Below, in pieces: positions 5,954-21,125 of a stretch of DNA of 40,217 nt. Source of the DNA: a virus (taxonomy: Duplodnaviria > Heunggongvirae > Uroviricota > Caudoviricetes); the IMG/VR virus record IMGVR_UViG_3300042154_003418, positions 1 to 40,217 of that record; one strand, 5' to 3'. The notes beneath the pieces were generated by a model that saw nothing but the letters and a program-made list of their open reading frames with translations, did not search any database and was not told the origin of the DNA. Position 1 is the stretch's first letter, and each line of letters starts with the position of its first letter. Both the position numbers and the translations under genes were made by a program.

Positions 5954-6264
5954 AACAACCCAAATACAACATCACTCGCGAATTCAATCAGTGGTTTTTT
6001 GATGAAAAATACCCTGAGCTCGGCAGCAATCGTGCACAAGTTTACATGACTGGCAATCCACACAATCGTGAGAACCGCGACTACTGGATGCGTCAGGCAT
6101 TTGTAGCAGGTGCTAATTCCATGCTGGGCGAAGTCAACTTGTGCCTACTTGAGTGGGCTTGTGCGGCTGAGGGTCTTGACCCAGAACTTGTAACTCCCAG
6201 CGAAGTCTATGACCGTGCTCGTGAGAACTTGCACAGCCACATTCGTCAACTGGAGCTGTTTTAA
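5950..6264 (+). CDS. Hypothetical protein
   Basis: Coupled ORF, 104 aa. Confidence 0.6.
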   Translation: MKQPKYNITREFNQWFFDEKYPELGSNRAQVYMTGNPHNRENRDYWMRQAFVAGANSMLGEVNLCLLEWACAAEGLDPELVTPSEVYDRARENLHSHIRQLELF

Positions 6265-6464
6265 TGAAGTTACGCAAAATGCGTCGCCGAGCTAATCAAA
6301 AGCGAGGCTTTGGTTATGGCAAACGCTGTCCCGAGTACTTTCGTGGATGCATAGTTTGCGAAGCCTATCACTACTATGACCAGCACAAGCGCTGGCCTAC
6401 ATTTGACCAAGCCAGTGAAATTTGTCGAAGACATATTTTAGAGGATATTATTTATGCGAGTTAA
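6264..6464 (+). CDS. Hypothetical basic protein with CxxC
   Basis: TAATG coupling; CIVCEAY. Confidence 0.55.
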   Translation: MKLRKMRRRANQKRGFGYGKRCPEYFRGCIVCEAYHYYDQHKRWPTFDQASEICRRHILEDIIYAS

Positions 6465-8798: not shown

Positions 8799-9115
8799 AC
8801 ATTCAAGAACTACTAGACCAAACTCCCAGACTACGTGCTTGGGCTGCAATCGGCCCGGTGCAACACGCAGAATTGACGCAGTTTGCACAACTCCTACTCA
8901 ACTCGCAAGCACAAGCACTAACTGCTGATAGTGTGTTGGTCAAGCCCGGCGATCAAGTTTGGGTATTAAGCTCACTGCGTGTACCCATGCCCACCACTGT
9001 ACGCAAGCTACAAGCATACACCACCTACACACTTTTCGGTCCAGTGCCTGTGTGTGAATCATGGTCAACTCGCGAAGCTGCCAACAAATACTTGAAAGAA
9101 AACTATGGCAATTAA
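8795..9115 (+). CDS. Hypothetical protein
   Basis: Coupled ORF. Confidence 0.55.
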   Translation: MNIQELLDQTPRLRAWAAIGPVQHAELTQFAQLLLNSQAQALTADSVLVKPGDQVWVLSSLRVPMPTTVRKLQAYTTYTLFGPVPVCESWSTREAANKYLKENYGN

Positions 9116-9428
9116 ACCCACACACCAAATCGCCTACAACTACTGCATGGCCAACATCCAGCAAAGTGCTGCGGTTGACCAAGTTAACACAGCACTCCGC
9201 AGTTTAGGGTCGGACAACTACCTGTTTAGCATGTGCGAGCCAATAGAGAGTGCGTATACCAAACTTGTTGAAGAATTACTAGGGCCAGAACTCTGGGACT
9301 GGCTGACCTGGTGGATGTATGAAACTGACTGTGGCCAACGCCAAATGCAGTTTTACATTGATGGTACAGAATACGATCCCACACAAATGACACTTTACCG
9401 CTTCTTGGAGATTGTTGATGCTGAGTAA
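9105..9428 (+). CDS. Hypothetical protein
   Basis: Coupled ORF; WLTWWMYETD motif. Confidence 0.6.
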   Translation: MAIKPTHQIAYNYCMANIQQSAAVDQVNTALRSLGSDNYLFSMCEPIESAYTKLVEELLGPELWDWLTWWMYETDCGQRQMQFYIDGTEYDPTQMTLYRFLEIVDAE

Positions 9429-9588
9429 ACTAAAACAAACACCAACTAAAGTCCTCTTGGCCATGCTGCTACTGCTGGTACTGTTTGTGGCAATACTGTT
9501 GTTTATTCCACCACTGGCAGGCAGCATTGTTGTGGCACTGGCCACTGGCTGGAGTGTTTTTACTGTACTCAACTACTGGATTGGATAA
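9418..9588 (+). CDS. Small two-TM membrane protein
   Basis: Hydrophobic 56-aa ORF overlapping the previous gene. Confidence 0.5.
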   Translation: MLSKLKQTPTKVLLAMLLLLVLFVAILLFIPPLAGSIVVALATGWSVFTVLNYWIG

Positions 9589-9592
9589 TACC

Positions 9593-9865
9593 ATGCGAAT
9601 CATCAAACACAGACTGCACCCTGGCATGAACAAGATTCAAGTTGAAGCTGACCACATATGCAAGCTCAGGTACATCAACGATCAAGACGGCCGTCTTATG
9701 GGCTGGTTTGAAGTTGCTGCTGATGTGGACTTGCACTTACAACCACATGAGTATGAAGTTTACCTGGCCATGACTGGTGAAACAGTTCCAGACGGCTACT
9801 GTTATGTGTGCAGCTATCAACAGCACCAAGCTGGTGGTTACTTTGTGGTACATGCTTTTGACTAA
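9593..9865 (+). CDS. Hypothetical protein (MRIIKHRL...)
   Basis: Internal ATG of track ORF 9485..9865; beta-rich small phage protein. Confidence 0.55.
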   Translation: MRIIKHRLHPGMNKIQVEADHICKLRYINDQDGRLMGWFEVAADVDLHLQPHEYEVYLAMTGETVPDGYCYVCSYQQHQAGGYFVVHAFD

Positions 9866-9959
9866 AGTCTAGCCGATTTGTTGCTACCTGCAATGTAACA
9901 AAACTCCAACAGACCAAGTTGGCTGAAAACCACATCAGCCGCAACCCTAAAAATCACCC

Positions 9960-9988
9960 TAGACAAACACCACCATAAAGGTTATAAT
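9960..9988 (+). promoter_or_regulatory. Sigma70-like promoter with a near-leaderless downstream gene
   Basis: TAGACA-N17-TATAAT; ATG only 6 nt after the -10 box. Confidence 0.65.
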
Positions 9989-9994
9989 ATTTAC

Positions 9995-10252
9995 ATGCAA
10001 AACAAAACTCAATACTTGATCTGCAAGTTGCAGGAGGAAGCAGCTGAGGTAATTCAAGCGGTTTCAAAAATCAACCGCTTTGGCGAACAAAGCCACCATC
10101 CTGATCGCACAACCACTAACAAACAAGAACTCGTCCAAGAACTAGAAGATTTCCTTGCAATTCTCGCAGTCTTAGAACAATCACAATGGCTAGACCTGAC
10201 CCCAAGTCGCAGTAATATTGCCAATAAAGCCCAAGCGCTTATTCAAGGTTAA
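9995..10252 (+). CDS. MazG-like nucleotide pyrophosphohydrolase
   Basis: KLQEEAAEVIQAVSK...ELEDFLA (ExxE...ExxD). Confidence 0.7.
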   Translation: MQNKTQYLICKLQEEAAEVIQAVSKINRFGEQSHHPDRTTTNKQELVQELEDFLAILAVLEQSQWLDLTPSRSNIANKAQALIQG

Positions 10253-10308
10253 ACCAGAGCCTGGCTACACAAAAAATCATAAACTATCTCCTAGCTAAAA
10301 TTTACACC

Positions 10309-10337
10309 TTGTTTTTTCGAAAAAAGTGTGCTATAAT
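10309..10337 (+). promoter_or_regulatory. Sigma70-like promoter upstream of D2-like gene
   Basis: TTGTTT-N17-TATAAT. Confidence 0.55.
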
Positions 10338-10635
10338 ATTAGTAATTGAAGAAACAGAGTACTAGGGCAGGAGTTAGTAACAGTAACACCGAGGAAGTTG
10401 GAAAGTCTATAGATCTTTCCAATCTTCCACGGTTATGTAAACTGTGTAAACTAACTCCGCTGCCCTACAAACTGCCAAAATGGCCACAAGTATTTTTAAC
10501 TTTTATTAACCCATTATTGTGGTTGGAGTGGGTGCGATAACAAAAGCAATCGCCCCACCTCGACCGCTTTCATACTCTAGAACTAATCTTCTAGACCCAC
10601 AACTGATCCACTTTAGGGTCAATTCACGTTAGATT

Positions 10636-11649
10636 ATGAACGATATTAAACTACTAGACTTTCCAGGCTTAGCCAGAGACTTTCAACAAACCTACACTCA
10701 ACTACGAGACGAACGATTACGGCTAGCCCAGGCTGTTGCAGAACGCCGCTATCGACAACAGTATAACCAATTGGTCCAGCAATTTTCAGGTTACGATTCG
10801 GAAGCAGGTAGTGACGGCATTGAAGAATCGGTTCGAGAATCACTGGGCGAGTTCGACCCACAAGCGGTTCAACTGCCAGAATCGGTATTACGTGAGTGTA
10901 AACACACGGCTAAGAGTAGTGTGGTTGAAGCTTGGAGTCTTAAAAACTCCCTTCCACAAAAGCTAACTTGGCTGCCGCATCAGCTGTTAGCATACTTTGG
11001 CACTTGGCAGGCTGTTCGTGACGACACAGGCAAGTATAGTGCCACACTAACCTGGGATGCCAACACCAGGGCTCGCGGCGACTACTACGCCTTAGGGTCG
11101 GCATTGCTGGCTACCTCCACTCGCACAAATTTTTTCAAGGATGCGCCTAAGGGTAATCAGCAGTACAAAAGTGTAATCAACCCACTTGTACCAATTATCT
11201 TAGCAGGATTTAAAAAGTATCAAGGCATCAACTATTCAGATTGGAATCCAGTTGGTTTGGAAACTTTGCTAGACCCTGAATTGGCCAAGCTTGTAGGTGT
11301 TTCGGTGCCGGAACTTTCACACAGCGAATTAATTGCGCTACGCAACACTGCCCTTACAGACAAAGAAGGTGCACGAGCAGGTATCCCCAATAATCCAGCT
11401 ACTTGCACCAAGCTCAATCACCTTGGTAATACGGCCATAGGTCACCTACCAAAACTTGCCAAATACATGGTACTACAAACCTGGGCAGCACATCCCAGCA
11501 ATCGTAATGAGTATATGATCTTAGACCCTAACAATTGGGATCACATTCCAGAGCCCCTGATCGGCAAAGATATTTTCTTGCCCAAACCACTTCAAGCCAC
11601 ACAACCCAGAATGGTTACCAGCTATTCGGAACTACCATGGGATGCTTGA
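10636..11649 (+). CDS. D2: T5 D2-like protein
   Basis: NPLVPIILAGFKKYQGINYSDW and LPKLAKYMVLQTW...RNEYMI...PEPL...PW recall T5 D2; precedes a D3-like gene as in T5. Confidence 0.7.
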   Translation: MNDIKLLDFPGLARDFQQTYTQLRDERLRLAQAVAERRYRQQYNQLVQQFSGYDSEAGSDGIEESVRESLGEFDPQAVQLPESVLRECKHTAKSSVVEAWSLKNSLPQKLTWLPHQLLAYFGTWQAVRDDTGKYSATLTWDANTRARGDYYALGSALLATSTRTNFFKDAPKGNQQYKSVINPLVPIILAGFKKYQGINYSDWNPVGLETLLDPELAKLVGVSVPELSHSELIALRNTALTDKEGARAGIPNNPATCTKLNHLGNTAIGHLPKLAKYMVLQTWAAHPSNRNEYMILDPNNWDHIPEPLIGKDIFLPKPLQATQPRMVTSYSELPWDA

Positions 11650-11962
11650 AATGAAATACACCAAAGAAATTTGTGACCACATGGTTCAAGCCTATAATTC
11701 AGGGGTTACGGTGCCACAGCTAGCACAGGAGCTGGACGTGCCCGAACGCAGCATAATTGCCAAGCTATCGAGCCTGGGAGTCTACCAGAAAAAGAGCTAC
11801 TTAAACAAGCGTGGTGAAACGCCGGTGAAAAAGTCAGAGCACATCGAACGCATTGCCATACTCTTGAACACCAACCTAGAATTGCTAGAATCATTAGAAA
11901 AAGTCAACAAAACTGTGCTGGTCATGATCGAACGCGCGCTCACCGACCCTAAACTGCCATAA
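11642..11962 (+). CDS. D3: T5 D3/A2-family HTH DNA-binding protein
   Basis: YT.E...MV..Y..G.TV..LA..L....RSIIAKLS..GVY...KK....I...L....ESLEK.NK; paralog of three other ORFs in the window. Confidence 0.7.
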   Translation: MLEMKYTKEICDHMVQAYNSGVTVPQLAQELDVPERSIIAKLSSLGVYQKKSYLNKRGETPVKKSEHIERIAILLNTNLELLESLEKVNKTVLVMIERALTDPKLP

Positions 11963-11998
11963 TTGCACACAATCCGACTTAATTGACGCTACAAACGC

Positions 11999-12035
11999 AA
12001 AAGCCCCATTATCATGTGATATTGGGGCTTTTTTG
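11999..12035 (+). terminator. Rho-independent terminator after D2-D3
   Basis: AAAAGCCCCA...TGGGGCTTTT followed by a T run. Confidence 0.85.
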
Positions 12036-12050
12036 TTTGTGTAATTCTCA

Positions 12051-12172
12051 TGTTCGAATTTGTCCCAAATTCGAACACGTTAGCTCTAAGTGTACGTTAC
12101 TGCTGCACTTGTTGCAGCTTAGGGTCATACAACACCTAAAGAATCTTTAGCACTTGTTGCAGCTTAGGGTCA
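12051..12172. repeat. 12-bp-arm inverted repeat plus a 23-bp direct repeat
   Basis: TGTTCGAATTTG-tcc-CAAATTCGAACA (12051-12077); GCACTTGTTGCAGCTTAGGGTCA at 12105 and 12150. Confidence 0.9.
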
Positions 12173-12192
12173 GTACTCACAAGAATCCACAC

Positions 12193-12230
12193 TTGACAAC
12201 AAAGGTTCTGCACTGGTATAATTTGGCGCA
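12193..12230 (+). promoter_or_regulatory. Promoter cassette copy (TTGACA-N18-TATAAT-TTGGCGCA)
   Basis: Direct sequence match; faces the terminator at 12283. Confidence 0.7.
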
Positions 12231-12282
12231 GACCGCAACAGACTAGGTGTAAAAATGTCGAGCTGACCAAAACACCCAAAAC

Positions 12283-12317
12283 AAAAGCCCCAAGAGTAGC
12301 TAACTCTTGGGGCTTTT
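12283..12317. terminator. Bidirectional intrinsic terminator
   Basis: 15-bp stem AAAAGCCCCAAGAGT/ACTCTTGGGGCTTTT with T tracts in both directions. Confidence 0.85.
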
Positions 12318-12485
12318 GAACAATCACGAGTGCACTCGCTGTTAGTTTTTAGTCTCACACGACGACTTACTGGGGGTACCACCCACGCTAACTGCATCGA
12401 CCCTAAACTGGAGCACGGTCGCAGGGCATTAGGTTATTGCCTGTGTAGCTCTAGCAGGGGAGAAAGTATTGGTTCGGCTCTTCAG

Positions 12486-12777
12486 CCCACCACACGGTTT
12501 ACGACACTGGGCTTTGTCGACTGCTATAGATTAACGACTGTTGCAGTTCGGGGTCGGGTGCTACGGTTCCAGCGCATGCACCACTTTTAGCGACTCGGGG
12601 TCGGGTGCTCCAGTCGAAGCTTTTGCACCACTTTTAACGACTTAGGGTCGAGTGCTCAGTTTGCGATAAGCACCACTCAGGGGCCATTTAACGACAATCC
12701 GTGTCGGGCCACATTAACGAGGGCCAAGCTCGGGTACGTAAGTGCACCAGGCTGCCAAGACCATTTTACGTCGGTAC
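12486..12777 (-). repeat. Array of repeated hairpin units (CGAC-loop-GTCG-YTAAA alternating with GGTGC-N13-15-GCACC)
   Basis: 32-nt repeats at 12578 and 12625 (28/32 identical, period 47) plus degenerate flanking units, one with a compensatory CGAG/CTCG stem. Confidence 0.75.
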
Positions 12778-12918
12778 CAGATAAGACGGCAGTTTATATA
12801 GTAACTGCTCACTAGGCTTACTCATTTCCAGCTAATCACTTTCAGTGGTGGGTCCATCCGGTTTTCGCTTTCGCTACTAGGCTTCAAGAGTCAGTCACAT
12901 CCCGGTTTCGCTGGGTTT

Positions 12919-13025
12919 TCATCCTGACCCTAAGGTACGGCAAGCGGTGATGTGGGAAAATCACGCACACTTGCTGTGAGGCCTTAAGGTTTCGCACAAC
13001 TTGCATGTGCTCATCAGAGGGTTGG
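12919..13025 (-). ncRNA. Hammerhead ribozyme, type I
   Basis: CUGAUGA-GCACA[UGCAAGU]UGUGC-GAAA core; 9-bp stem III (ACCUUAAGG/CCUUAGGGU); GUC cleavage triplet; short stem I (CCU/AGG). Confidence 0.8.
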
Positions 13026-13236
13026 TATCGCATACGGGTAACGATCCCGTCTAGGTACCTTGAAAGGGTACTGACCTCACCTGAAGTCGAATGCGATATG
13101 TTAAATTAGCCACGCAGGTATTTTACTACTTACCATACGGAACATCGTCCAGATATTACGGGCTAAAAAGGTTGGGCTGCGACTAGAGTTTGTTCGGTCG
13201 CAATCAAGTTGTTATCCCAGCATCGAGTGCTGAGCC

Positions 13237-13594
13237 TCATAACACCCATAAGTTAATCGGCCAACGTAATGGTCCACACTCAAATCGTAGATATAGGATG
13301 CGTAAGCTAAGTTTTCTGGCTTAAAGGTTGCTGCCTTTCCATACTTCGCCGCTTACTCCAACAGAGCCTATCGCCGTAACAATTATAGTTGCGCTACTAG
13401 ATTACTGCCACCAGCAAGTAGCTGGCCGATTAACTTATGGATTCATAACACCCATAATAAAGTACCCAGCAAATTCTTGCAGAGTTGCAGCATTCTACCA
13501 CTTTCGCCGTCTCGGCCGAGACCTACCGGTGGGGTTAATCTGCATACATCTAACAAGCAAACCAGGCTAGCACTGTCTGGGTACTTTATTATGG
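13237..13594 (-). repeat. Two tandem domains, each closed by a perfect 18-bp stem and followed by an identical 15-nt handle
   Basis: 13246-13263 pairs with 13423-13440; 13452-13469 pairs with 13577-13594; TCATAACACCCATAA at 13237 and 13443. Confidence 0.9.
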
Positions 13595-13682
13595 ACACTA
13601 AGGGCTGTGGCTCGGTTCCCGAAGGTATTCCCCACAATTAAGACGCTGCTTGACGCGACCGCTGTCACCCAATCTATACTAT

Positions 13683-13991
13683 ATTATAACATACAACAGT
13701 TAACATAATCAAGATAATATTTAGTAGCCTTGTTAACTGCTGTTGTCTTATCGCTTTCTAAGTATATATTATATCAAACTCAATTAACAAAATCAACAAA
13801 AGAATTCCAATCGTTTCCTCAAGACTAGCTTCGCAGGTGTGTCGACGTACAGTGACTGGTTAGTGATTGCGGCTGCTGAGGCAGAACTGGCACCGGTTGA
13901 TTAATCACACGGTATTCATTAAGCCATTCCCGACTGGGTTCTTTGTTAATTTCTAAGTATATATTATATCGCGAAATGGGTCACAGATCAA
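13683..13991 (-). promoter_or_regulatory. Three tandem minus-strand promoters upstream of the ncRNA
   Basis: TTGATT-N18-TGnTATAAT (13712-13683), TTGATT-N17-TATAAT (13796-13768), TTGATC-N17-TATAAT (13991-13963); the latter two share the leader ATATACTTAGAAA. Confidence 0.75.
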
Positions 13992-14014
13992 GTGTAGATT
14001 TTGTGACCCTAAAC

Positions 14015-14323
14015 TTAAGCAAGTTCTGCAACCAGACGCTCAAGCACTTCGTGGTTGGCCTTTTCCAGGCTTTCAAACACTTCTGGAGCAACGCCGCAGG
14101 CAAGTGCCAGCTTGTCCACCAGTTCGGCTTTACGCACACGGTGTTGGCCGGTGGCCTTGGTTTTGGCCACGTACACGCCTTCGCGGCTGAGTTTGGCCAC
14201 TACACTGCGTACGGTTTTGCCCAGGGTCTCGGCCAGTTGTTCCACGGTCTTGCCCGACTGGTAGCCTGTGACGAGTTCCACGGTTTGCTCGGGAGTGTAG
14301 TTTTGAGGGGTTGCTTTAGTCAT
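14015..14323 (-). CDS. A2: T5 A2/D3-family DNA-binding protein, paralog
   Basis: NYTPEQT...GKTVRSVVAKLSREGVY...ESLEKAN; RBS AAAGGA; the 195-aa track start is an upstream extension. Confidence 0.8.
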   Translation of the reverse strand: MTKATPQNYTPEQTVELVTGYQSGKTVEQLAETLGKTVRSVVAKLSREGVYVAKTKATGQHRVRKAELVDKLALACGVAPEVFESLEKANHEVLERLVAELA

Positions 14324-14363
14324 CATATGTCCTTTGGTTGGTTTCTGCGCTGTTGAAGATTCT

Positions 14364-14392
14364 ATTATACGTGAATCAGAAGGGAACATCAA
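14364..14392 (-). promoter_or_regulatory. Promoter of the A2-like paralog
   Basis: TTGATG-N17-TATAAT-AGAATCTTCAACA; the same leader recurs at 15852-15870. Confidence 0.75.
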
Positions 14393-14507
14393 GATCAAAA
14401 TTTTCGTCTTGAGTGGTAGTATCACAAAACATTTCCGATAGTTCCGCATCCACAAATTCATCGAATGCCGCATACTGATACGCTGTGAAAAATTCGTTTG
14501 TTGCCAT
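14376..14507 (-). CDS. 43-aa acidic peptide ending ...DENFDLDVPF (SSB C-terminal-tip-like)
   Basis: Own promoter (TTGCAG-N17-TATAAT near 14536-14564) and AGGAGA RBS; 11 D/E and no K/R. Confidence 0.65.
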   Translation of the reverse strand: MATNEFFTAYQYAAFDEFVDAELSEMFCDTTTQDENFDLDVPF

Positions 14508-14579
14508 CTGCCGTTATCTCCTGTTGATGTAATAATTATACAAAACTTGGACACTTGCTGCAATATCAAAAATTTCGTC

Positions 14580-14700
14580 TTGACACTGTAAAGCTTTTGC
14601 ACTTATAATTTGGCGCAGCAAACCCTCAAGTTTTTGCACTTGACCGCGCACTGGCGCAAGGCCCAAGGTTTTGCACTTGACAAGGTTTCGCACTGGCGCA
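14580..14700 (+). promoter_or_regulatory. Promoter cassette copy plus two degenerate TTTTGCACTT...TGGCGCA repeats
   Basis: TTGACA-N18-TATAAT-TTGGCGCA at 14580-14617; repeats at about 14632-14658 and 14669-14700. Confidence 0.7.
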
Positions 14701-14724
14701 GCACGGTTACCGTGCTGGTTAAAT

Positions 14725-14824
14725 TGTGACCCAGCAGTCACAAACTAGACCGATCAGTCGCAATCTATACCGATCAGTCGGTGACCAGACTGTTCAGTCG
14801 GCATCTATACTGTGCAGTCACAAA
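14725..14824. repeat. Five tandem 20-bp iteron-like repeats with internal dyads
   Basis: AC-N4-CAGTC in phase every 20 bp (e.g. CTATACCGATCAGTCG, CCAGACTGTTCAGTCG). Confidence 0.85.
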
Positions 14825-14923
14825 ATGCCTGGTACAGTATAATTATGACCGGGCGGTTTCGGCGCAAGAATCGTGCCAGGTGGCACAAAAACAACACCCA
14901 ATTGTAACAGTTTGTAACAGTCG

Positions 14924-15013
14924 TTGACACGGGCCGCAAAATTGTGGTATAATTTTGGCGCAGTTTTGCAAACAAAAGTATTCATTTTTGTTTGCAAACA
15001 AAAGTACTCATTT
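14924..15013 (+). promoter_or_regulatory. Promoter cassette with GTTTGCAAAC palindrome array
   Basis: TTGACA-N18-TATAAT-TTTGGCGCA, then TTTGCAAACAAAAGTATTCATTTTTGTTTGCAAACAAAAGTACTCATTT. Confidence 0.8.
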
Positions 15014-15024
15014 GTGGACAAAAT

Positions 15025-15053
15025 AAAACCCGCATAATAGCGGGTTATTATTA
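15025..15053 (-). terminator. Intrinsic terminator (probably bidirectional)
   Basis: AACCCGC-ataata-GCGGGTT with A/T flanks. Confidence 0.7.
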
Positions 15054-15296
15054 AATAAATGCGGATCTGGGGATTTTAACCAATTGATTGAGATAATCAA
15101 TCTCCCATTCATAATGGGCGAATGTCTCATAATCATAATCACCAGTCATTGCCAGCAAATAATCGGCGGCAATATTAATATAGTTTGGCCGAATTTTGGA
15201 GAATGGCAAACCATTATAATCGCTTGGATTAATATCTAATTGGCAAAATGTGAGAATCACGGGTTTATCGGCAAAACTTGGCAAATTGAAAAGCAT
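15051..15296 (-). CDS. Hypothetical protein (MLFNLPSF...)
   Basis: ATG coupled to the upstream acidic ORF stop. Confidence 0.55.
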   Translation of the reverse strand: MLFNLPSFADKPVILTFCQLDINPSDYNGLPFSKIRPNYINIAADYLLAMTGDYDYETFAHYEWEIDYLNQLVKIPRSAFI

Positions 15297-20873: not shown

Positions 20874-21125
20874 GGGTTTATTATATCATGCTTTTGCAGT
20901 TGGTCAACAGTTTAATTGAACTGTTACAAACTGTTACATGTTAGCTAGTTGGTTCACAAATCTGTTAGGAAACAAAAGTACTCATATTATAGTAGGTTTA
21001 CAAACAAACTGACTAGGGGCGGTTAGTAGACTAAAGTTTACACATACGCCGTGGCACCCACCCACACGCGGCCTATGGGGTAAAAATCCCAAAACCATCT
21101 GGGTGCCGTACCATGCCTCAGCCGA

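Follow-up and report, generated by a model that had tools for sequence, protein, structure and literature searches.

In the CsrB/RsmZ sponges, a non-coding RNA (ncRNA) shows one short sequence repeatedly in the loops of small hairpins, with a copy number that varies and a word that also occurs in mRNAs. TIGR arrays consist of 36-nt units with two 8–12-nt repeats and two ~9-nt spacers each, usually comprise 5–15 units and lie adjacent to a gene for a Nop-domain protein (Tas) (PMC12045711). In type III antitoxins, nearly identical repeats in tandem precede a terminator and a gene for ToxN, AbiQ, CptN or TenpN (PMC5086642), and phage T5 carries a 1.66-kb non-coding, repeat-rich region with paired DnaA boxes at the edge of its pre-early genes (bioRxiv 10.1101/866236). 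Here, we analysed an array of short hairpins on the minus strand of a 40,217-nt stretch of DNA (the window), which makes up the initial 40 kb of a phage record in IMG/VR that is 104,217 bp long and has terminal repeats (IMGVR_UViG_3300042154_003418). The source is an uncultured freshwater phage, and its 104-kb genome encodes a terminase, a capsid protease–major head fusion and a thymidylate synthase.

The array shares the above traits of CsrB/RsmZ, with 3 canonical and 3 related hairpins here and 0–6 in relatives, and the idea of a CsrB-like multi-site sponge, raised in an initial annotation of this DNA, is retained as the best functional analogy. However, its word is GACCCUAA (loops CCUAA/CCCGA) and not the GGA bound by CsrA/RsmE, no CsrA-type partner of it is known, structured cassettes that are conserved yet swappable lie between its sites, a phage encodes the RNA, which a hammerhead apparently releases, and the word is also conserved as its reverse complement. 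With TIGR arrays it has in common two alternating conserved elements and two variable segments, in this case in a phage and ending at a terminator, whereas its units measure 47 nt in the window and 37–44 nt or irregular lengths in relatives, come in 2.3–2.5 copies, and hold ‘spacers’ of 5 nt and 14–16 nt here and of 10–107 nt in relatives, which are structured and conserved. The ~36–47-nt tandem RNA units, A-rich single-stranded joints and phage copy-number expansion recall ToxI and pseudo-ToxI RNAs (PMC5086642; PMC3475682), but the repeats make up only ~20–32 nt of each unit, neither a pseudoknot nor processing to unit length is in evidence, and no toxin gene lies by the array (the next gene is on the other strand and helix-turn-helix (HTH)-like; toxin families were not searched genome-wide). 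Finally, a gene-free, repeat- and inverted-repeat-rich 1.5–2 kb beside small early genes, together with cassette-like structured RNAs, is reminiscent of the injection-stop region and small stable RNAs of T5; here, by contrast, the stretch is transcribed into an RNA that includes a ribozyme and a tRNA, and the array is without paired DnaA boxes. DnaA-box-like TTTTGCACT repeats do occur at 14590–14695, outside the array, which itself stands beside small minus-strand genes, a position compatible with that of the T5 region.

A conserved, fast-rearranging RNA module

The array is a real, conserved and fast-rearranging RNA module of a new phage ncRNA family. Ten short hairpins lie on the minus strand within 12476–12780, where units of GGUGC-(14–16 nt)-GCAC(C) abut CGAC-loop-GUCG, which is followed by YUAAAAG. 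Six CGA[C/G]-N5-14-[C/G]TCG hairpins occur in 292 nt, whereas 2000 dinucleotide-preserving shuffles contained 0.09 on average and never more than 2. Repeat finders return a 47-nt period at 12548–12657 comprising 2.3 copies that match at 80%, or 2.5 copies when the RNA strand is read; only the ~32-nt flanks of the 47-nt unit are alike, and the units match at 75–80%, with 4 of 32 positions differing in the repeat core. The initial annotation had described hairpin units on this strand, in the 3′ half of an RNA, with 32-nt repeats that are 28/32 identical at a 47-nt period, and the present analysis agrees with it on each of these points.

No open reading frame (ORF) of at least 90 aa lies between the stop of a plus-strand gene (11962) and that of a minus-strand gene (14015). 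Three sigma70-like minus-strand promoters (13991–13963, 13796–13768 and 13712–13683) and a strong intrinsic terminator of 16 bp on the same strand (12318–12282) frame a ~1.4-kb early minus-strand ncRNA from 13675 to 12282. Within it, a tRNA-Glu(UUC) (13097–13023, minus) directly precedes a type I hammerhead, whose core CUGAUGAG (13017–13010) is followed by a stem II hairpin and CGAAAC, and whose long stem III ends in the cleavage-site strand CCUUAGGGUC (12935–12926). Stem I of the hammerhead covaries, as read from the sequences of relatives (designated by L numbers), from ACCCU/AGGAU in the window to AUCCA/UGGAU in L008 and AACCUU/AAGGUU in L007. The array belongs to the 3′ fragment of ~645 nt that extends from the cleavage site to the terminator (12282–12925, minus). 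At both gathering and E<=10 thresholds, Rfam holds no family for the array, with no match to ToxI, CRISPR, CsrB/RsmZ, pistol, hatchet, twister, GOLLD or ROOL, and a BLAST comparison of 11900–15100 with cultured phages found sequence similarity in the tRNA only.

Relatives were collected by three exact-pattern scans, using a conserved 5′ motif, a degenerate constant-hairpin pattern (in viral contigs) and the 20-mer CGACCCTAAGTCGYTAAAAG (in metagenome contigs). The resulting family has ~45 members from uncultured phages, comprising 29 non-redundant viral RNAs, 17 metagenome loci and L061, a fragment binned into a metagenome-assembled genome. In viral contigs, every non-coding match to the constant hairpin belongs to this family and lies downstream of a hammerhead, while the other 16 matches are in-frame coding coincidences. 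The constant element CGAC-CCUAA-GUCG-UUAAAAG is near-invariant and occurs in 0–6 copies per RNA, separating segments of 10–107 nt. Its loop always begins with CCUAA or CCCRA, is 5–16 nt long and may extend to CCUAA-ACYGYAGCA, and its stem is CGAC/GUCG in 30 of ~36 cases (variants UGAC/GUCG and AGAC/GUCU were counted, and CCAC/GUGG was read by eye in L014 and L023). The layout of constant and variable elements noted in the initial annotation is conserved across the ~45 relatives.

The variable segments are hairpins that covary and are conserved, and different phages share them in reshuffled form. A terminal helix closes 17 of 40 segments, compared with 5.2 ± 2.3 (maximum 10) in shuffles; many of the segments are 10-nt linkers. 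The same cassettes are present in different phages in different orders, several of the longer ones being common to L014, L039, L050, L066, L070, L073, L074, L078 and L079. In the two-tier cassette A3 (GGUGC-AU-GCGC-UGGAA-CCGU-A-GCACC, 12557–12582, minus), aligned in 12 sequences, all three outer pairs covary and none is broken, with an invariant inner stem; L039 has the same A3 sequence, and L078 departs from it by a single stem base. The terminal hairpin T1 (CGAC-AAAGCCCAGU-GUCG, 12502–12519, minus) covaries at alignment pair 4–19, which is G-C in 8 sequences and A-U in 2, and hairpin T2 (GGCU-GAAG-AGCC, 12476–12487, minus), which closes the array just outside the span first reported for it, has double-sided changes in 3 of 4 pairs, with 97.5% of cells paired. 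For T1 and T2 together, 96% of cells are paired and 10 are doubly changed, a covariation score reached by 0 of 500 shuffles, and registers slid along the alignment are 8–34% paired.

Covariation across relatives, together with the location between promoters and terminator, bears out the initial proposal that these are hairpins of an RNA. One of its arguments, that a CGAG/CUCG unit was a compensatory swap, does not hold, because CGAG-CUUGGCC-CUCG is a hairpin in its own right, which many relatives have in the same position (L014, L026, L029, L039, L051, L061, L064, L073–L077 and L079); a genuine compensatory change occurs in T1 (CGAC/GUCG to CAAC/GUUG), and the T2 and A3 stems covary as well. 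Among relatives, the conservation of the inserts between the repeats equals that of the repeats themselves, which, coupled with a lack of processing, was the outcome that the initial annotation had named as refuting its reading. Considering that the segments are structured, conserved and shared among phages, they are not spacers.

Copy number has changed by independent tandem amplification, with units of 47 nt ×2.5 in the window, 44 nt ×2.2 at 98% identity in L008 and 39 nt ×2.3 in L029; a 37-nt-spaced pair was read from hairpin positions in L013 and L052. Metatranscriptome contigs of three freshwater studies, which stem from close relatives (85–99% identity), fall within 12347–12843. The whole array is covered by two of them, each ~610 nt long, in which, relative to the window, blocks of unit size are replaced (103 nt by 18, and 38 by 71) and 27 nt are inserted. 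These RNA-library data are contigs and not reads, and speak to presence and continuity only (not to ends, strand or abundance), with DNA carry-over possible; the lack of cover over 12916–13680 in the three metatranscriptomes is not usable as evidence. The whole 12347–12843 stretch is also contained in ~18 lake-water DNA runs.

The loop word across the genome

The 5′ stem and loop of the constant hairpin read GACCCUAA, and the corresponding DNA word, GACCCTAA, links the ncRNA to an oriented, genome-wide signal, which is a new point. The 104-kb genome contains 25 copies against ~3 expected. With 9000–14100 masked, GACCCTAA is still the top over-represented 8-mer (14 copies against 1.05 expected, z = 12.7, order-3 Markov), outranking the tRNA T-arm word and the –10 promoter word. 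The dispersed copies follow gene direction, lying on the plus strand at 21–54 kb and on the minus strand at 71–101 kb, and the strand switches between 54 and 71 kb, the point where two gene blocks converge. In the window, copies occur at 21124, 28723, 33421 and 36647 on the plus strand and at 9211, 10620, 11099, 12126 and 12171 on the minus strand. The excess recurs in five related phages (14–26 copies, against 4–8 of a control word), where the copies likewise form strand blocks and, at the RNA locus, a cluster of both orientations.

Within called ORFs, GACCC[TC]AA occurs 19 times in sense and 3 times in antisense orientation. It is used in 13 of 15 Asp-Pro-Lys/Asn triplets, compared with 16 of 54 other Asp-Pro pairs (Fisher p = 1.7e-4), a preference indicating that codon-pair bias is not the only source of the excess. 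Around the RNA gene, the word is also found as its reverse complement, in the 3′ domain as CAGUUUAGGGUC (12399–12410, minus), which is nearly universal among relatives with the extended consensus mirrored, and in the hammerhead site in most lineages, but not in all. The reverse complement further occurs 13–21 nt upstream of the –35 boxes of the ncRNA's outermost promoter and of a convergent plus-strand promoter at 12193, as well as in the transcripts of the convergent operon, and this pattern of positions is repeated in relatives. In the literature, the sole matches to the word were miR-125b papers.

Proposed multivalent display and the alternatives to it

We favour, with a probability of roughly 45%, the reading that the array is a multivalent display or decoy for a factor that reads GACCCTAA elsewhere. 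It builds on what is observed, namely the anatomy of the array, its conservation, the covariation of its stems, its copy-number turnover and the genome-wide status of the word. The array is the modular middle of the ~645-nt fragment, presumably cut by the type I hammerhead from the ~1.4-kb early phage ncRNA, with a constant element made of a marginally stable 4-bp CGAC/GUCG hairpin and a predicted single-stranded UUAAAAG, and with interchangeable cassettes, each probably closed by its own terminal helix abutting the next constant hairpin. Every constant hairpin would present GACCCUAA single-stranded, and the RNA would serve as a docking or decoy platform for a sequence-specific factor, probably a protein that is titrated or scaffolded by binding, while the cassettes may add binding modules or hold the sites apart. 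The different numbers (0–6 constant hairpins) and orders of cassettes among phages, and what appears to be independent amplification of the unit in several lineages, would then reflect selection that repeatedly alters copy number. Phages have few large structured RNAs, most of them without a known function; the 20-nt constant hairpin offers a concrete handle on one of them, and the tie between the ncRNA and a genome-wide sequence signal is a testable link.

A more specific form of this idea, which we consider quite improbable, holds that GACCCTAA (extended form GACCCTAAACYGYAGCA) is a strand-oriented signature word of the clade, read by a dedicated factor that the ncRNA array and the complement would titrate, load or time. 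One candidate reader is a primase or helicase: the complement TTAGGGTC contains GGGTC, a T7-primase-type priming site, and a central origin like that of T5 would place it on the template of the lagging strand. The strand switch of the word fits a central origin as reported for T5. If this reading is true, the ncRNA would be a decoy directed at a signal, in DNA or RNA, that is spread over the whole genome, and no regulator of this type has been described so far.

Several observations weigh against the display or decoy reading. The neighbouring genes offer no evident RNA-binding partner, as they encode a 337-aa protein without a family match and two small HTH-like paralogs. The minimum free energy of the region (–94.5 kcal/mol, against –97.7 ± 4.8 in shuffles; z = +0.67) does not single it out, and the centroid structure contains the A hairpins, those of the GGUGC/GCACC cassettes, but not the 4-bp CGAC/GUCG (B) stems; the case for the hairpins is therefore comparative and not energetic. 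In addition, the CGAC/GUCG stem scarcely varies, so that covariation support for the constant hairpin is thin, and the sense-orientation enrichment of the word is confounded with replication direction. Both orientations of the word are conserved, and because a single-strand RNA-binding protein would not read both, this favours base pairing or the recognition of double-stranded DNA.

Base pairing is the core of the main rival, an antisense model that we hold to be unlikely, in which the constant hairpins are recognition loops and GACCCUAA(ACYG...) pairs with UUAGGGUC-containing RNA. Candidate partners are, in cis, the 3′-domain site at 12399–12410 and the hammerhead cleavage-site strand at 12926–12935 and, in trans, the convergent plus-strand operon at 9204–9211, 10613–10620 (15 nt before the ATG of the 337-aa gene), 11092–11099, 12119–12126 and 12164–12171. 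Besides the near-universal CAGUUUAGGGUC with its mirror-image consensus, the model gains from same-strand copies of the word at ~+60–105, +820–1110 and +1380–1660 nt past the terminator in most relatives, which imply that the mRNA of the opposite-strand operon carries the complement, and from hairpin CGACCCUAAGGCGUAGCAAGUCG of L003, which is complementary over 16 contiguous nt to an internal site of its own 337-aa gene. Like the loops of CopA, RNAI and Sok, those of the array cap small hairpins, measure 5–7 nt and include a Y-U-N-R stretch (CUAA) complementary to sites in other RNAs; we take this CUAA to fit the YUNR U-turn motif of antisense-RNA loops. Unlike in those systems, the hairpin is present in several copies per RNA and its candidate targets do not covary by lineage. 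Indeed, the 3′ site shows no cognate-specific covariation with loops or outside sites beyond the shared 17-nt consensus (permutation p = 0.31–0.66), and a comparison of loops with outside sites reached only p = 0.07 over all sites, the first site downstream giving p = 0.02. Moreover, the 3′ site has drifted in L066 and L075 (UUGUGGGUC and UUCUGGGUC), although their loops still read GACCCUAA, the L007 group has an unrelated sequence at the hammerhead site, and most genome-wide copies are in mRNA sense and hence not complementary to the loops. RNAalifold found just 4 weak pairs in the 3′ domain. The conservation of a 17-nt consensus in both orientations also speaks for a second alternative, quite unlikely in our view, that the repeats act as DNA, where a protein would recognize GACCCTAAACYGYAGCA, in duplex or unwound form, at a cluster of sites, with the RNA hairpin potential being secondary. 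Such sites could serve promoter control by the flanking HTH paralogs (duplex GACCCTAAACTGCAGCA), an analogue of the T5 injection stop, or a replication priming or loading signal, in keeping with the copies that, here and in relatives, precede the –35 boxes of flanking promoters by 13–21 nt, with the coincidence of the strand switch and the convergence of gene blocks, and with the analogy to the non-coding, repeat-rich stretch that adjoins the pre-early genes of T5 (10.1101/866236). Recognition as DNA leaves unexplained, however, why the array copies alone have a CGAC/GUCG frame, at a distance that varies, and a UUAAAAG tail, and why the neighbouring stems covary, in a region that is an RNA gene with a ribozyme and a tRNA.

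Two further models concern the fate of the RNA units. The constant hairpin and UUAAAAG might be a processing signal, with a host or phage endoribonuclease cutting the A-rich linker and freeing the cassettes as small stable hairpin RNAs, much like the helix-clamped small RNAs of T5-type tRNA regions. We regard this as unlikely: the cassettes are self-closed, conserved and reshuffled like independent cargo, each flanked by the constant element, and the ncRNA, with its ribozyme and its tRNA, is already a transcript of several modules that undergoes processing, but the two ~610-nt contigs that cross the entire array mean that at least part of the RNA is not cut at every unit, and many of the ‘cassettes’ are the 10-nt linkers mentioned above. 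Far less probable still is a TIGR or mini-CRISPR guide-RNA array, as the initial annotation had suggested, or a mimic of type III antitoxin (ToxI-like) repeats, which would account for the superficial alternation of two repeats with two variable parts and for the unit length of 37–47 nt, the expansion of pseudo-ToxI repeats being known in phages (PMC5086642). The variable parts are structured hairpins common to different phages, the three inserts match nothing else in the phage genome at <=2 mismatches, the units are not near-identical tandem copies, and Rfam returned neither ToxI nor CRISPR. A search for PF01798 (Nop) that gave hits in control genomes found nothing in the whole 104-kb genome, which extends the absence of a Nop-domain gene, previously noted for the window, to the complete record. 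For comparison with host CRISPR, TIGR or toxIN loci the repeat takes the form GCACCCGACCCUAAGUCGUUAAAAGUGGUGC; across 185,579 species-representative bacterial and archaeal genomes, its 18-mer forms no array and gives 4 single hits, of which one is L061, itself a fragment of the same RNA family, and 3 are unrelated. A CRISPR mini-array would have identical repeats of ~24–48 nt, matching a host CRISPR repeat or adjoining cas genes, and unique spacers of ~26–72 nt; here the variable parts fall short of that length or are structured, and different phages have them in common (no family-by-family search for cas genes was made). The repeat-plus-variable layout is thus a cassette string and not a guide array, which calls for caution when viromes are mined for CRISPR or TIGR systems, as repeat-plus-variable phage RNAs can be cassette strings.

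Array elements and surroundings of the RNA gene

All elements of the array are read on the minus strand, from higher to lower coordinates. A conserved 5′ anchor, CUGGUACCGACGUAAAAUGGUCUUGG (12755–12780), is found in most relatives and anchors the comparison of arrays. It is followed by H0 (GGUGC-ACUUAC-GUACC, 12733–12748), present in the centroid structure and conserved in L023, L029, L038, L064 and L076, by H1 (CGAG-CUUGGCC-CUCG, then UUAAUG, 12718–12732), with the same sequence and position in more than 10 relatives, and by H2 (CGAC-ACGGAUU-GUCG, then UUAAAUG, 12692–12706), which is identical in L039 and reads ACGGAC in L064. Cassette A1 (GGUGC-UUAUCGCAAACUGA-GCAC, 12652–12674) belongs to the centroid structure and is identical in L039, with one change in L064. 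The punctuation hairpin B1 (CGAC-CCUAA-GUCG, then UUAAAAG, 12638–12650) has the canonical form, and its exact 20-mer recurs in 17 metagenome loci and its 18-mer in many viral loci, the non-coding ones always belonging to this RNA family. Cassette A2 (GGUGC-AAAAGCUUCGACUGGA-GCACC, 12604–12629), also in the centroid structure, has an ortholog in L038 that differs at 3 of 26 positions; B2 (CGAC-CCCGA-GUCG, then CUAAAAG, 12591–12603) has the same loop variant in L064, L073 and L078. After A3 comes B3 (CGAC-CCCGAACUGCAACA-GUCG, then UUAAUC, 12535–12556), whose extended loop fits the consensus ACYGYAGCA, and then T1 and T2. The stretch CUGAAGAG at 12476–12487 was considered as a second hammerhead core and rejected, as it is the GAAG-loop hairpin T2, and the paired changes in its stem destroy such a core (CAGAAGUG being one case). 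Further into the 3′ domain, another hairpin (12422–12443, minus) has the loop AUAACCUAA ~20 nt before the UUUAGGGUC site and may be a local pseudoknot partner; by eye, its stem varies yet remains paired (CAGGCA/UGCCUG, ACACC/GGUGU, CCCC/GGGG and ACGCAA/UUGCGU).

The tRNA-Glu(UUC) precedes the hammerhead in L007, L008, L023, L033, L050, L051, L065 and L068 and is missing at the same point in L003, L006, L013 and L014, which suggests that the tRNA is itself an optional cassette. A circular RNA made by RtcB was considered and rejected, the genome being without an RtcB gene. Two paralogs of ~105 aa with HTH-like features flank the RNA gene in convergent orientation (11642–11962, plus, and 14015–14329, minus); they match phrog_323/phrog_1725 and give a weak IF2_N-like hit. 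Each of these genes ends beside a copy of the signature word, an arrangement kept in L003 and L005. For the upstream 337-aa protein, PHROG, Pfam and Atlas yielded no lead. Its gene carries the word complement both before the start codon (10613–10620, 15 nt upstream) and inside the ORF (11078–11100, in codons for YYALGS), and the 337-aa gene of L003 has it at the matching sites 5979–5986 and 6457–6464.

On the plus strand, 12193–12318 holds a perfect TTGACA-18-TATAAT promoter followed by a conserved GGCGCAG start, and a short transcript from 12193 would share the bidirectional terminator and converge with the large ncRNA. The TATAATTTGGCGCAG start of this transcript recurs at 14580 and 14924 and is conserved in relatives. 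Between divergent promoters beside the RNA locus, 14590–14810 contains 4–5 copies of the DnaA-box-like AAGNTTTTGCACTT at 37-nt spacing and four 20-nt tandem repeats ACCGATCAGTCGCAATCTAT, which recalls the DnaA-box- and repeat-rich injection-stop region of T5.

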